Shown: piece by piece, positions 48,243-53,995 of the stretch
How positions within the stretch are numbered: position 1 is the first letter of the stretch
Layout: the number at the start of each line of letters is the position of its first letter
Assembly: GCA_963695345.1 (NCBI GenBank)
Contig: OY968769.1
Location: forward strand, 1,536,001-1,600,000
Length of the DNA stretch: 64,000 bases
Source: an uncultured Methanomassiliicoccales archaeon
Lineage (GTDB): Archaea; Thermoplasmatota; Thermoplasmata; Methanomassiliicoccales; UBA472
Reading direction: 5' to 3'
Translations under genes and position numbers: made by a program
The notes under the pieces: generated by a model
The model's database searches: none
Seen by the model: only the letters and a program-made list of their open reading frames with translations
Told to the model about the DNA's origin: nothing

Positions 48243-49367
48243 TCACTTGGCCGGGGCCTTCTTGGCAGCGGCCTTCTTCGCCACCGCCTTCTTTGCCGGA
48301 GATGACGTCTTCGCGGCTTCCTTCTTGGCAGCAGCCTTCTTTGCCGGGGCCTTCTTCTCTGCTTTCTTGGCCTTTGGTTCGCCCTTGATCTCGAACAGTG
48401 AGCGTATCTCCTTGCCAACGACCTCGATCTTGCTCTCGGCCTCCTTCTTCTCCATGGACTGGAGCTTCTTCATGCCTCCGTTGGCGTCTTTCATCCATTC
48501 CTTGGCGAACTTGCCGGCCAGGATGTCGTCCAGCAGCTTTTCCATGGCCTTCTTGGACTCCTCGTTGATGACCTTGTCGCGGGTGGACAATCCGCCGAAC
48601 TCGGCGGTGTTGGACACGCTGGTCCACATGTGCATCATGCCGCCCTTCTGGATCAGGTCCACGATGAGCTTGAGCTCGTGCAGGCATTCGAAGTAGGCGA
48701 TCTCCGGCTGGTATCCTCTCTTGACCAGGGTGTTGAAGCCCGCCTCGATCAATGCGGTCACTCCGCCGCACAGGACCGCCTGCTCTCCGAACAGGTCCGA
48801 CGTCGCCTCTTCCTTGAAGGTGGTCTCGATGACCCCCGCCTTGGTGGCGCCCAATCCCTTTGCCAGGCACAGCGCCACATTCTTGGCGTTGCCGGTGAAG
48901 TCCTGTTCCACGGCGATCAATGCGGGAACGCCGAACCCTTCGAGGTAGACCTGCCTTTCCATCGGTCCAGGAGACTTCGGGGCCATCATGATGACGTCCA
49001 CGTTCTTCGGGGGCTTGATGACGCCGAAAGTGATAGCGAATCCGTGCGCGAAATCGATGGCCACTCCCTCCTTGAGGTTCGGCAGGATCTCTTCCTTCCA
49101 GACCTGGCCTTGGACCTCGTCCGGGATGAGTATCATGACCACGTCCGCACCCTTGACCGCATCGGCCACTGGTGCTACCTTCATGCCGTTCTTCTTGGCG
49201 TCGTCCCAGGACTTGCCGCCCTTCCTCAGGCCGACGGTGACGTCCAGTCCGGAGTCGCGCATGCACATGGATTGCGCCTTCCCCTGACTTCCGAATCCGA
49301 TCACAGCCACCTTCTTTCCCTTCAGGACCTTCAGGTCCGCGTCAGCGTCATGGTAGATTTTTGCCAT
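48243..49367 (-). CDS. ilvC: Ketol-acid reductoisomerase with Lys/Ala-rich C-terminal tail
   Basis: IGFGSQG, FAHGF, APKSPG, DLFGEQ.VLCGG, AYFEC.HE, SNTAE. Confidence 0.96.
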   Translation of the reverse strand: MAKIYHDADADLKVLKGKKVAVIGFGSQGKAQSMCMRDSGLDVTVGLRKGGKSWDDAKKNGMKVAPVADAVKGADVVMILIPDEVQGQVWKEEILPNLKEGVAIDFAHGFAITFGVIKPPKNVDVIMMAPKSPGPMERQVYLEGFGVPALIAVEQDFTGNAKNVALCLAKGLGATKAGVIETTFKEEATSDLFGEQAVLCGGVTALIEAGFNTLVKRGYQPEIAYFECLHELKLIVDLIQKGGMMHMWTSVSNTAEFGGLSTRDKVINEESKKAMEKLLDDILAGKFAKEWMKDANGGMKKLQSMEKKEAESKIEVVGKEIRSLFEIKGEPKAKKAEKKAPAKKAAAKKEAAKTSSPAKKAVAKKAAAKKAPAK

Positions 49368-49443
49368 TTTATTTCACCTATTGCATTTTTCTATTTTTAT
49401 TCCAGATATCCAGTCAAATATAAACATTGTTTGAGCTTATTCC

Positions 49444-51172
49444 TCAGGCGGGGAAAACCCCTGGCGATTCTATCTTGGCTGGCGTATTGGGTTGGCATTC
49501 CTTCCCCCACTTGCACCGGCCCATGATAACGTCCTTGGACGGTTTTCCTCCCGGTTGCATGGGGAGAACGTCCTCCTCTGGGTCCACGTGGATGTCGATC
49601 AGGATGGGAACGTCCGATTTGAGCCCGGCCAGGAACGCCTCGCGGATCTCAGAGGGTCTCTCCACCTTGATGCCGCCTGCCCCGAAGGCCTTGGCCAGCG
49701 CCACGAAGTCAGGGTTTATGTGGAGGTCTGTTCCGGAATAACGCTTGTCATTGAACAGCTTCTGCCACTGCTTGACCATCCCCAGCCATCCGTTGTTTAG
49801 GAGGCAGATCATGACCGGCAGGTCCTCGTTCATGGCGGTGGCGAACTCATGGAAGTTCATCTGGATGCTCCCATCCCCGGCTATGTTAACGACCTGGTTC
49901 TCCCGGTGCGCGTACTTTACGCCAAGAGAGGCCGGGAATCCGAACCCCATGGTCCCGAAACCGCCGCTGGTGATGAAATGGTGCGCATGCTTGATCTTCA
50001 GCAGGTGGGCCGCCCACATCTGGTTCTGTCCCACCTCAGTGGTGACGTAGGCATGCTCGTTGAGCGCCTTTCCCAGCTCATGCATTACCTTCTGTGGCTT
50101 GATGGGCATCTCACTGATGTCATTGTTGCATTCGCAATGCTCGTGCATCTGCTTCATGCGCAGCGACCAGGCGTTGTCCCCCCTGGCCCGCCCCAGTCCC
50201 TTGATGATCTGCTGCAGACCCTTCTTCGCATCGCCGACCAGCCTGACCTTGGTATGGCTGTTCTTCCCCGCTTCCATCGGGTCGATGTCAAGGTGAATGA
50301 TCTTGACGGCCTCTGGCAGCTCCGACGGCAGACCGGAGGAGCGGTCTGAGAACCGGGTGCCTATGGCGACCATCACGTCGCACTCCAGGAACGCCCTCCT
50401 GGCGATCTCCCGTCCATGCATCCCGATCATGCCCATGCACAGTGGGTGCATCTCCGGGATGATGCCCTTGCCCATCATGGTGGTGGCCACTGGCGCCATG
50501 AGCATCTCCGCCAGTTTCATGACTTCATGACTGGCATTGGCCCACATCGCCCCCCCGCCGACCAGCAGCATCGGTCTTTCCGCGTCCTTAAGCAGCTTGA
50601 CCGCCTCTAGCATGCCGGATAGGTCCTCGAACGGAGCCGGGACCGGGAAATTCCTCCTCCATCGCCGTCTCTGTTATCTGGGCCTTCATGACGTCGGAGG
50701 GAAGGTCGATGTGTACTGGGCCCATTCTGCCGTTGAGCGCGATGGCCCAGCCTCTCTTGATCGCCTCTGGGATCTGCTTCACGTCGAGAAGCCGGAAATT
50801 GTGCTTGGTGACGGGCATCATCAACGAGAAGACGTCCGCCTCCTGGAATGCGTTGTTGCCGATCATGCCGGTGGGCACCTGGCCGGTGAGCACGATCATG
50901 GGGGCGGAATCGGCATAGGCGGTCGCCACCCCGGTGACCAGGTTGGTGGCGCCGGGTCCGGAGGTGGCCAGGCAGACGCCCGGTTTGAGCGTGGCCCGGG
51001 CATAGCCGTCGGCCATGTGAGCGGCGCATTGCTCGTGGCGTACCAGAACGTGGTGTATGCTAGAATCGATCAGGTCATCATAGATGGGCAATGCCTGCCC
51101 TCCGGGATAACCGAACATCACGTCCACGCCCTGCCTTTCGAGCAACGTTAAGACCGCTTTGGAGCCTTTCAT
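49444..51172 (-). pseudogene. ilvB: Acetolactate synthase large subunit, copy A; +1 frameshift near 50648 (possibly a sequencing error)
   Basis: RHEQ, TSGPGATN, VGQNQMW, GDGS, NNGWLGMV; GAATTTCCCGGT has one extra base relative to E-F-P-V. Confidence 0.85.
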
Positions 51173-51202
51173 GAACTAATCTCCCATAATCCAGCAATCA
51201 TC

Positions 51203-51230
51203 GAGGACATCCTTGGAAAAAGGATGCCTC
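51203..51230 (-). promoter_or_regulatory. U-tract hairpin after leader peptide A (candidate attenuator)
   Basis: mRNA GAGGCAUCCUU-UUUCC-AAGGAUGUCCUC. Confidence 0.55.
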
Positions 51231-51233
51231 TTT

Positions 51234-51302
51234 TTAAATGACAGTCATCACTACGCTTACACGCAAAATCAAGACGCCAGTCTCGCACGTGATGCCTGAC
51301 AC
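51234..51302 (-). CDS. Putative BCAA-rich leader peptide of ilvB copy A (22 aa)
   Basis: GTG start, MSGITCETGVLILRVSVVMTVI*; TATA TTATATAT at 51333..51326. Confidence 0.75.
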   Translation of the reverse strand: MSGITCETGVLILRVSVVMTVI

Positions 51303-51401
51303 AGTTTATCATGATAGAAGGAAGCATATATAACATTTCTTGAAATGAAATTAAGGTTCCCTGGACGGTGCCGCGTCGGACGTCCAGGTAAGAACATCCA
51401 A

Positions 51402-53135
51402 TCATGATGGGAACACCCTCGGCGCCTCTATCTGACTGGGCGCTTGATATCCGCATTCCTTCGACCAGTTGCATCTGGTCCCTTTGATCGACATCGCTGC
51501 AGCCAACTCCTCCCGGCTGCATCGGCAGGACATCCTCCTCGGGATCTGTATGGATGTCGATGATGATCGGTACCTCGGAATCCAGTCCGCGGCGGAACGC
51601 CTCCGCCAGTTCCGAAGGCCTTTCCACCCGCAGTGCCGTCGGCACCATAGGCTTTTGCCAAGGCGACGAAGTCCGGGTTCAGGCCCATGTCGGTACCCGA
51701 ATATCGCTTGTCGTTAAGCAGCTTCTGCCACTGCTTGACCATGCCCAGCCATCCATTGTTCAGGAGGCAGATCATGACCGGCAGGTCCTCGTTCATGGCG
51801 GTCGCTAGCTCATGGAAGTTCATCTGCAGGCTGCCGTCACCGGCGATGTTGACGACCTGTTCTTCGCGGAATGCGTACTTGACCCCTAGGGACGCGGGCA
51901 GGCCGAAGCCCATCGTCCCGAATCCGCCGGAGCTGATGAAGTGGTGCGGATGCTTGATCTTGAGGAAATGGGCCGCCCACATCTGGTTCTGGCCGACCTC
52001 GGTGGCGACATAGGCCTTTTCATCCAGTGCCCGGGCCAGTTCGAACATGACCTTCTGCGGCCGGATCGGTGTCTCGCCCATGTCCAGGTCGCATTCGCAC
52101 TGTTCGCGCATCTGCTTCATGCGGAGGGACCAGGCGCTCTCTCCCTTGGCCCGGCCCAGTCCCTTGATGATCTGCTGCAGTCCCTTCTTCGCGTCGCCGA
52201 CCAGCCGGACCTTGGTGCGGACGTTCTTGCCCGCCTCCATCGGGTCCACGTCCAGGTGGATGATCTTGACCGTTTCCGGAAGGTCGGAGGACAGGCCGGA
52301 CGAGCGGTCTGAGAACCTGGCACCGATCGCGAACATGACGTCGCACTCCAGGAACGCCCTCCTGGCGATCTCCCGTCCATGCATCCCGATCATGCCCATG
52401 CACAGCGGGTGCATCTCCGGGATGATGCCCTTGCCCATCATGGTGGTGGCCACCGGCGCCATCAGCATCTCCGCCAGCTTGGCCACCTCCGGCCCGGCGT
52501 TCGCCCACATGGCCCCTCCGCCGACCAGCAGCATCGGCCGTTCCGCCGCCTTGAGCAGTTTGACCGCCTCAAGGACCCCGAACAGGTCCTCGAACGGCTC
52601 TGGAACGGAGAACTCCTCATCCAGGGCCGATTCGGTCAACGTTCTCCCTCATGACGTCCGATGGGATGTCGATGTGGACCGGTCCCATCCTGCCGTTCAT
52701 GGCGATGCTGAAGCCGCGTTTGATCGCCTCCGGTATCTGAGCCGCGTCCAGAACTCGGAAGTTGTGCTTGCTGATCGGCATCATCAGCGAGAAGACGTCC
52801 GCCTCCTGGAACGCGTTGTTGCCGATCATGCCGGTGGGCACCTGGCCGGTGAGCACGATCATCGGGGATGAATCGGCATAGGCGGTCGCCACCCCGGTGA
52901 CCAGGTTGGTGGCTCCCGGACCTGACGTGGCCATGCAGACGCCCGGCCTGCCGGTCGCCCGGGCATAGCCGTCGGCCATGTGAGCGGCGCCCTGCTCGTG
53001 GCGTACCAGGACATGGTGTATGCTAGAATCGATCAGGTCATCATAGATCGGGATGGTCTGGGCGCCCGGATATCCGAACATCACGTCCACCCCTTGCTTT
53101 TCCAGCAACGTCAACACCGCTTTGGAGCCTTTCAT
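51402..53135 (-). pseudogene. ilvB: Acetolactate synthase large subunit, copy B; three +1 frameshifts (~52640, ~51637, ~51490)
   Basis: Fragments align to copy A through ...IEAPRVFPS* ending at 51402. Confidence 0.8.
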
Positions 53136-53170
53136 GGACTAACCCTCATTTTCCTGAAATGGTTGGAACA

Positions 53171-53188
53171 TCCTTTTCGAGAAAAGGA
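53171..53188 (-). promoter_or_regulatory. U-tract hairpin after leader peptide B (candidate attenuator)
   Basis: mRNA UCCUUUU-CUCG-AAAAGGA, same position as in copy A. Confidence 0.55.
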
Positions 53189-53195
53189 GCCTTTC

Positions 53196-53264
53196 TCACA
53201 ATACGAGCAACACTACGTCTACACGCAAAAGCAGGACGGCGTATCGGCATGTGGTGCTCGACAC
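53196..53264 (-). CDS. Putative BCAA-rich leader peptide of ilvB copy B (22 aa)
   Basis: GTG start, MSSTTCRYAVLLLRVDVVLLVL*; TATA TTAATATA at 53295..53288. Confidence 0.75.
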   Translation of the reverse strand: MSSTTCRYAVLLLRVDVVLLVL

Positions 53265-53344
53265 AAAAAGTGACAGGTCTTGGAGCATATATTAACGTTT
53301 CTTGATATTCTCCAAGGGCAGGCCGCCATCCGAAAAACTGTCAA

Positions 53345-53995
53345 ATGATTCATTGCATCCCGTCAGAAAAGAACGGCTTTAATACTCCGAAAAGCCTGCC
53401 ATCAGCGTTGTCGCAGTCTGGTCCTTCCGATGAGATCATCCTTGCGGACCATGACCCGGAATGGTCAAGGTCGTTCGAGGCCGAGGCAAGATTGATAGGG
53501 CGGGCATTGGCCGACCTGAATCCGACGATCATCCATATCGGCAGTACGGCGATTCCCGGGCTTTGCGCCAAACCGATCATTGACATCCTGGTGGGTGTGG
53601 GCGACATGAACGACCGCTCGGTCGTCCCGGGACTGGAGAAGATCGGTTATGCATTCCAACCGGAGGCGGGCGAATCGGACAGGCTCTTCTTCCGAAAGGG
53701 CGTCATACGAACCCACCACGTCCATGTGGTCAGGTTTCGCGGTTGGGCCTTCTGGAGACACGTATTTTTCCGGGACTACCTCGTGGCCCACCCGGCTCTA
53801 TGCTCGCAGTACAGCGATCTGAAACGCAGGAGCGCGGAGCAGTATCGATTCGACCGCGCAGGCTACACCGATTCCAAGTCTGGATTCATCGGGGAGGTGT
53901 TGAGGGCTGCGACACTCAGAGCATTTATTACTGTCACTGAGCAATATGCCCCGGGAGGGGGCTCCCCTCAATTGTGTGAATCCGATGTCCTTTGA
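53345..53995 (+). CDS. GrpB family protein
   Basis: W...F..EA, HIGSTAIPGL.AKPIIDI, FRDYL, Y..LK, YT..KS. Confidence 0.88.
   Translation: MIHCIPSEKNGFNTPKSLPSALSQSGPSDEIILADHDPEWSRSFEAEARLIGRALADLNPTIIHIGSTAIPGLCAKPIIDILVGVGDMNDRSVVPGLEKIGYAFQPEAGESDRLFFRKGVIRTHHVHVVRFRGWAFWRHVFFRDYLVAHPALCSQYSDLKRRSAEQYRFDRAGYTDSKSGFIGEVLRAATLRAFITVTEQYAPGGGSPQLCESDVL

Follow-up and report, generated by a model that had tools for sequence, protein, structure and literature searches.

In Bacteria, attenuators of branched-chain amino acid (BCAA) biosynthesis such as those of Escherichia coli ilvBN, ilvGMEDA and leu carry leader open reading frames (ORFs) that are rich in codons of the pathway, include rare codons and place these codons within RNA structure. 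The title of Morbach et al. 2000 reportedly describes a Corynebacterium leader peptide whose synthesis involves no ribosome binding site. Factor-dependent control is represented by the tna leader of E. coli and by archaeal FttA/aCPSF1 termination, and transcription and translation are coupled in Archaea. Conserved RNAs upstream of bacterial ilvB—the Corynebacterium ilvBNC leader/ilvB-II, ilvB-OMG and Leptospira motifs—contain in-frame start and stop codons and a BCAA-rich peptide, and are described, in the part of the source available to us, as transcription attenuators with terminator hairpins (PMC10272879). The mycobacterial polycysteine short ORFs, according to the available part of their description, are leaderless, carry a tract of cognate codons and stand at several loci of one pathway, with the stalled ribosome preventing a fold that would otherwise hide the ribosome binding site downstream (10.1101/834739). 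Here, in a 64,000-nucleotide stretch of DNA from an uncultured Methanomassiliicoccales archaeon (assembly GCA_963695345.1, contig OY968769.1, positions 1,536,001 to 1,600,000; the window hereafter), we describe two leaders, one in front of each of two tandem acetolactate synthase (ilvB) genes. Each comprises an upstream ORF (uORF) ending in a run of valine, leucine and isoleucine codons, a long-range stem (P1) that pairs this run with the uORF start region, and a hairpin (P2) right after the stop codon. This anatomy is conserved, both stems covary and the uORF codons match the pathway; the leader is likely to be a ribosome-mediated BCAA sensor, and it appears to be an archaeal equivalent of control by leader peptides in Bacteria, though not a replica of the bacterial system.

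Like the E. coli ilv and leu leaders, the archaeal ones place a short ORF rich in pathway codons upstream of the gene (Val, Ile and Leu for ilv, Leu for leu), use rare codons and form structured RNA. Unlike the E. coli attenuators, they have a TATA promoter, a predicted leaderless GUG start, no 2:3 antiterminator and no terminator made of a hairpin with a U-run or of an oligo-T tract; only in the archaeal leader are the regulatory codons part of the 3′ arm of a stem in which the start of the uORF is sequestered, with the stop codon adjoining a second hairpin. With the bacterial ilvB motifs they share an RNA that precedes ilvB and encodes a BCAA-rich peptide, and they differ in their domain of life, in the terminator hairpins of the bacterial motifs and in their score against Rfam, which gave no match at the gathering score in the whole window and none at E ≤ 1 in 51100-53400. 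As in the mycobacterial cysteine system, the sensory ORF is predicted to be leaderless, has a cognate-codon tract and recurs at several loci of one pathway, but the BCAA tract is not complementary to the ilvB Shine–Dalgarno (SD) region. By analogy with tna and FttA, a ribosome at the end of the leader could decide factor access without an antiterminator or U-run, which is purely hypothetical for the ilvB leader.

Archaeal precedents are scarce in what we could consult. The available part of a commentary on archaeal coupling raises attenuation only as a general role of coupling and treats a link between coupling and termination (PMC13681488); a paper on archaeal valine mentions attenuation for bacteria only, in its available text (PMC13158618); and the available parts of start-site and ribosome-profiling papers on Haloferax report uORFs with no link to amino-acid sensing (PMC4983044, PMC7261190). 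Our searches of the full-text literature, subscription journals not covered, yielded no description of amino-acid sensing by an archaeal leader peptide, in keeping with an earlier note on this DNA, made from its letters alone, which had held that such a mechanism was not established for archaeal ilv genes.

Both window uORFs lie on the minus strand. That of ilvB copy 1 (VSSTTCRYAVLLLRVDVVLLVL; 53196..53264) and that of copy 2 (VSGITCETGVLILRVSVVMTVI; 51234..51302) each begin with GTG and run for 22 codons, closed by TGA in copy 1 and TAA in copy 2; our check of the translations reproduced exactly the coordinates, stop codons and peptides that the earlier note had given. Its count of Val, Leu and Ile codons, 11 of the final 13 in copy 1 and 9 of 13 in copy 2, was likewise correct, as was its observation that each GTG stands 31 nucleotides (nt) from the first base of a TATA box. 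At copy 1 this box (TTAATATAT; 53287..53295, minus strand), preceded by a purine-rich stretch, has its first T 31 nt upstream of the GTG at 53264; at copy 2 the box (TTATATAT; 51326..51333, minus strand) lies 31 nt upstream of the GTG at 51302. The spacing is 29–31 nt in most leaders, and the genome as a whole shows a modest peak of TATA-to-start distances at 28–31 nt, a promoter geometry that fits a leaderless uORF start at the predicted transcription start site. A remark that uncommon codons are retained also holds: minor BCAA codons make up 6 of 10 in one uORF and 7 of 11 in the other, GTA, TTG, ATT and CTT being favoured, and across 891 long ORFs of the genome GTA supplies 9% of Val, TTG 13% of Leu, ATT 10% of Ile and CGT 10% of Arg codons. 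The likeness between the two window copies alone is weak evidence, because they are tandem paralogues. Within the genus, the copy 2 peptide is unchanged in six of seven other genomes, the seventh differing at two residues (VS to AN), and orthologous versions of the copy 1 uORF are present in six genomes; from the TATA box to ilvB these same-genus leaders are far better conserved than the DNA farther upstream. On this and the wider comparisons that follow, the two uORFs are not chance ORFs.

Those comparisons were confined to Thermoplasmatota, with families labelled f1–f29 by the analysis; ilvB upstream regions were gathered from 40 relatives and a covariance model was built from 31 of their leaders. 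Of the 151 genomes sampled from the order Methanomassiliicoccales, 77 contain a leader that the model matches, distributed by family as f1 43/46, f2 1/1, f3 4/4, f5 9/10, f6 19/24, f4 0/1 and f7 0/64. Every one of 43 matches in genomes searched for IlvB ends at the start of an ilvB-like ORF, and in the window's own genome the model matches only the two ilvB leaders at E ≤ 1. Six of the seven families of the order have the same layout: a TATA box, 29–31 nt, GTG (ATG in two sub-types), an ORF of 20–26 codons, its stop codon, a hairpin, a spacer, an SD site and the ilvB start. In families f2 and f5, a more distantly related ilvB paralogue is preceded by a separate version of the uORF that begins with ATG (for example, MNAALLLVRNSLLVSVQVLVV), and no such ORF occurs in the five ilvB upstream regions examined from family f7. 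In one genus of the window's own family, the downstream tandem ilvB (~1315665-1316100 in a genome of that genus) has no leader or promoter-like region, unlike that of the window's genus.

A separate search for TATA-spaced uORFs was positive in 45 of 56 ilvB-type upstream regions; of the 11 regions missed, five are those of f7, four are short, spurious tblastn matches, and the other two are a shorter variant and a downstream tandem copy. The same search found no such ORF in control regions upstream of hisG (0/20) or trpE (0/15). The earlier note had suggested looking in related genomes for uORFs rich in cognate codons, and these precede ilvB across the order and, as set out below, leuA.

The coding signal was assessed on 35 distinct peptide versions, which are related and represent roughly ten independent lineages. 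The uORF frame is open from the start to the hairpin in 35/35, compared with 5/35 for the +1 frame and 18/35 for the +2 frame over the same span, and the GTG start is invariant in the leader alignment. Val, Leu and Ile together account for 67% of the last eight codons (Val alone for 36%); over the whole uORF V is 18%, L 14% and I 11.5%. Counted back from the stop, their combined fraction is 0.94, 0.91 and 0.91 at codons −2, −3 and −4; codons −2 to −6 encode one of the three in 71–94% of versions; a second cluster lies nine to thirteen codons before the stop (0.43–0.86); and the fraction falls to 0.06–0.14 at codons −14 to −18. Which BCAA dominates varies by family (VVVVI, VIVVL, VLLVL, AVVIIIS, GIIIR), with different nucleotides encoding the runs. 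The claim that substitutions mostly swap one BCAA for another, originally drawn from the two window copies, extends to relatives, in which V, I and L codons interchange while the nucleotides change, as selection on the class of codon would predict.

The same codons are built into a stem. In copy 1 the 5′ arm of P1 covers uORF codons 2–6 (53248..53260, minus strand) and its 3′ arm is the Val/Leu codon run (53204..53217, minus strand); in copy 2 the 5′ arm includes the GTG start codon itself (51289..51302, minus strand) and the 3′ arm consists of the last six codons, V V M T V I (51238..51251, minus strand). All four arms are drawn from folds (of minimum energy in copy 1) and from covariation, on which the P2 hairpin of copy 2 also rests; this starts 3 nt past the stop codon and has 11 base pairs (GAGGCATCCTT / AAGGATGTCCTC; 51203..51230, minus strand). 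The P2 region of copy 1 (53165..53191, minus strand) was assigned by homology through the alignment and is weak, and a competing hairpin in the folds of this copy (53179-53197) takes in the stop codon. Among 20 representatives, P1, which joins codons 1/2–7 to the final BCAA run, appears in 17 minimum-energy folds and P2 in 18, with P2 arms complementary in all 20. Relative to the last base of the stop codon, the first base of P2 lies at −3 to +5 nt in all 35 versions.

P1 and P2 were taken from single-sequence folds, imposed on alignments and then tested by pair counts. On a MAFFT alignment 75.2% of cells pair under P1 and P2, compared with 35–64% when the partners are slid; on a model-fitted alignment of 46 distinct sequences, which leans towards the covariance model by construction, 77.5% pair compared with 34–64%. 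Across those 46 sequences, double changes occur in 15 of the 21 pairs, and the level of covariation observed is reached by 0/500 shuffles. Complementarity among the representatives is confined to the arms of P1 (mean z −2.4) and of P2 (mean z −4.7).

Beyond pairing, the 3′ arm of P2 always contains ATG or GTG (as GGATG or GGGTG) followed by TCCTC (window 51203-51214, minus strand), and we take this arm to resemble the 3′ end of 16S rRNA. It is followed at fixed spacing by a conserved motif, recognized in the alignment, with consensus CATTGT (GATGATTGC in copy 2; 51194..51202, minus strand), which reads Ile-Val in the frame of that ATG or GTG. A second ORF starting there was considered and rejected, as its length, stop position and frame relative to ilvB vary.

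A parallel leader precedes a gene devoted to leucine. In the window's genome, one of the four LEU1-type synthase genes, leuA, is preceded at a distance of 42 nt by a uORF with its own SD site (MSAINNSIYCLLRL; genome 548482-548526, outside the window, minus strand); the intact orthologue of this gene scores as a 2-isopropylmalate synthase (NF002085, 675 bits, above cut-off). SD-led uORFs precede leuA in 30/30 loci of relatives, 28 of them with at least three Leu within six residues, typically LLLRLL. In 27 distinct leuA uORF peptides Leu makes up 31%, Ile 10% and Val only 2.4%, whereas the ilvB uORF is Val-rich; the codons therefore match the pathway, a leucine gene having a Leu leader and the shared BCAA gene a Val/Ile/Leu leader. 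The leuA and ilvB leaders have the nucleotide motif CTTTTGCG in common. Of 12 leuA leaders that were folded, 9 pair the region around the uORF start with a segment immediately past the stop, the same enclosing principle as P1 in a different fold.

Among other Thermoplasmata families, different and non-alignable BCAA-rich uORFs of 26–32 codons stand before ilvB in f10 (12/12) and f28 (2/2), 27–36 nt after a TATA box (17 nt at one locus) and with 7–9 Val, Leu or Ile in their best ten residues; in f10 a strong hairpin, which includes the stop codon in its 5′ arm, extends almost to the SD site. Family f11 (4/4) has a uORF about 30 nt from a TATA box with a BCAA content of only 25–33%, f29 has no uORF before ilvB and f22 is doubtful. 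No such uORF lies upstream of ilvD, ilvC or the other three LEU1-type synthase genes of the window's genome, and no His-rich uORF upstream of hisG in 20 loci. A genome-wide scan anchored on TATA boxes gave four matches rich in Ile, Leu and Val; the three not at ilvB (genome 2531421, 200640 and 40) were set aside for want of a convincing downstream gene or context, and an unanchored genome-wide scan for leader peptides was set aside as too noisy.

At trpE, the upstream regions of family f1 have paired TGTACA-containing boxes flanking the TATA box, an operator-like arrangement instead of a uORF; these boxes look similar to operators of the methanogen Trp repressor TrpY. Before trpE, families f3 and f2 share a short, conserved uORF (M(T/K)LQRDLLW...) that contains one Trp codon; a longer uORF in family f5 contains three. 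These may be a Trp counterpart of the BCAA leader, on what is a thin case.

How far could these observations be explained without amino-acid sensing? The covariation of P1 and P2, the conservation of the P2 sequence and of the CATTGT motif beyond the needs of pairing, the within-genus conservation that begins at the TATA box, and a polar N-terminal half of the peptide that looks dictated by complementarity to the BCAA codons would all be expected of a structured cis-regulatory RNA that binds a protein or small molecule, with an incidental ORF whose Val, Ile and Leu are simply how a U/G-rich P1 3′ arm reads. We consider this unlikely. Such an RNA would give no account of a frame open in every version when its two neighbours are not, of an invariant GTG at promoter distance or of the exchange of V, I and L runs among families through different nucleotides; nor would it yield a Leu-rich, Val-poor uORF in a different fold at leuA, or non-alignable BCAA-rich uORFs in f10 and f28, and no Rfam family matches it.

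Still less probable is a uORF that is translated but constitutive, serving as a ribosome-loading, coupling or mRNA-stabilizing element for ilvB. Family f11, in which a leaderless uORF at the same promoter distance has an unremarkable BCAA content, is what such an element might look like, and an alternative RNA switch was not found; left unexplained are the Val, Ile and Leu at codons −2 to −6, the rare codons and the composition of the leuA uORF. That the uORFs encode functional small hydrophobic peptides co-expressed with ilvB, such as membrane micro-proteins, is very improbable: the C terminus is hydrophobic and the ORF conserved, but the hydrophobic run of only ~5–13 residues is too short for a membrane helix, composition and not sequence is conserved between families, and the association is strictly with ilvB, in one or two copies per genome, with the same logic, in Leu, at leuA.

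We therefore return to the BCAA sensor. The translation-coupled sensing proposed in the earlier note gains support from the order-wide conservation, the V/I/L codon swaps, the covarying BCAA stem, the parallel uORF at leuA, the uORFs of other Thermoplasmata and the promoter geometry. Its word attenuation is supported for the principle of sensing, though not as a demonstrated mechanism of termination, as both an antiterminator and a terminator were tested for and not found. In the mechanism that we propose, each ilvB mRNA would start at, or within a base or two of, the GUG that opens a leaderless leader peptide of 20–26 codons, and the transit of a ribosome across Val, Ile and Leu codons that are mostly rare in this genome, placed in the final five or six positions and in a second cluster ~10 codons before the stop, would report the supply of charged tRNA-Val, tRNA-Ile and tRNA-Leu. 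With the BCAA codon run as the 3′ arm of P1 and the start-codon region as the 5′ arm, a fully transcribed uORF would close its own initiation. P1 would lock the start codon against the sensory codons, so that entry would be possible only during transcription, and the sensor would work once per transcript, as a co-transcriptional decision made on the first ribosome behind the polymerase.

A ribosome unwinds ~8–12 nt ahead of its A site. One that reaches the stop codon would open P2, and one stalled at least four codons upstream would leave P2 intact and P1 open. When BCAAs are plentiful, P2 would be opened briefly and P1 would then close; when they are scarce, P2 would remain intact and P1 would be held open. 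This difference, read while the polymerase is in the ~60-nt spacer, would set ilvB expression, higher when BCAAs are scarce, and a sensible sign requires either that an opened P2 represses or that an open P1 activates. The sensing half of this mechanism has good support. Both transcription and translation are candidates for the level of the output, for which we see three possibilities, roughly equal in standing and unproven. In the first, the freed 3′ arm of P2 (CCUC) would mask the ilvB SD site once its own partner is covered by the ribosome. In the second, exposed spacer RNA would become accessible to an archaeal termination or cleavage factor, leading to factor-dependent termination or cleavage. 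In the third, something else would be read on P1.

The modelling of SD accessibility gives a weak and inconsistent trend. In partition-function folds masked by a ribosome that occupies the stop codon, the SD site and the P2 region are predicted to pair at 0.45, up from 0.17, and the increase is at least 0.3 in 16 of 35 versions; P2, at about −16 kcal/mol, should quickly win its arm back from the SD pairing, at about −7.5 kcal/mol. Nor does the codon tract itself reach the SD site, the BCAA run pairing with the ilvB SD region at a mean z of +0.1 (1/20 below −2).

Several points weigh against the sensor or against particular forms of it. That the uORF is translated, where transcription starts, that ribosomes stall and which way the regulation runs are all features that we infer from sequence; the genomes compared are related, so that counts overstate independence; and GUG is a weak start codon for a leaderless mRNA. 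Pairing with an A/C-rich opposite arm of the stem could in part account for the U/G-rich BCAA codons. The folding energies of the window leaders are only modestly better than those of shuffled sequences (z −2.15 and −1.31), and blind RNAalifold on the MAFFT alignment recovers only 10 pairs, mostly in P2 and amounting to part of it. Several simple models give the wrong sign, with ilvB on when BCAAs are plentiful. Neither window leader follows the trend towards SD masking (0.00 to 0.10 and 0.60 to 0.51), and with a broader SD window pairing only goes from 0.51 to 0.42. A classical antiterminator was rejected: the BCAA run with the P2 5′ arm and the start region with the P2 3′ arm have mean z values of +0.2 and +0.1, with 0/20 below −2, and pairings of the P2 3′ arm or the start region with the SD region have mean z between −0.6 and +0.3 in the 20 representatives. 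As only P1 and P2 are better than shuffles, the leader has neither an antiterminator nor a codon tract that hides the ribosome binding site in the mycobacterial manner. The usual archaeal intrinsic terminator is an oligo-T tract; a conserved one was also rejected, as a run of at least five T lies between the stop codon and ilvB in only 5/35 versions, and the longest run is only two in 13/35, and an intrinsic archaeal terminator is therefore not a conserved part of the leader.

The genes served by the leaders are tandem acetolactate synthase large-subunit genes on the minus strand, followed by ilvC (profile matches TIGR00118 and TIGR00465), and both products are of the biosynthetic type (TIGR00118, E 1e-114 to 1e-126). 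Frameshifts, which the earlier note did not mention, split both: copy 1 (51428..53135, minus strand) is read in pieces, with 1-nt indels near 52641 and 51633, and copy 2 (49444..51172, minus strand) has a 1-nt insertion at ~50650 relative to the orthologue of a same-genus genome. Assembly error is the simplest reading, suggesting long-read indel errors rather than true pseudogenes, because the ilvB ORFs of relatives are intact (556–596 amino acids), the genome is a single contig with a marker completeness of only 85%, and its leuA (547241-548439, outside the window) is likewise broken into three pieces.

The regions upstream of the two copies are alignable from the promoter onward and unrelated farther upstream, and each gene has its own promoter-like TATA box and its own SD site, GAGGG at 53143..53147 for copy 1 and GGGAG at 51181..51185 for copy 2 (both minus strand). 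A TATA-like box for ilvC (49417..49424, minus strand) lies ~55 nt upstream of the ilvC start (ilvC 48243-49367), which suggests that each leader probably controls its own ilvB only. No ilvN adjoins either window ilvB, and genome-wide no small regulatory subunit of acetolactate synthase scores above the family cut-off, the best TIGR00119 match reaching 37 bits against a cut-off of 56.9.

Taken more broadly, the balance tips slightly towards a Thermoplasmata regulon that reads amino-acid supply through the ribosome, with pathway-matched leaders read once per transcript and a non-bacterial output that uses neither an antiterminator nor a U-tract terminator. In such a regulon the uORF start would be locked in a stem with or next to the sensory codons, hence the single read, and the output might lie in a hairpin adjacent to the stop codon, whose opening would expose an anti-SD-like arm or a site for a termination or cleavage factor. 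If true, ribosome-mediated attenuation would be described for Archaea for the first time, with its output step solved in a new way. Widely conserved, unlike the bacterial leaders in anatomy and available as a matched pair at ilvB and leuA, the leader is a concrete test case; with it one could ask how signals pass from a ribosome to the eukaryote-like RNA polymerase of Archaea or to a ribosome binding site farther downstream. For these methanogens, in which a canonical small subunit is not above cut-off in the window's genome, the leader may explain how acetolactate synthase is controlled.

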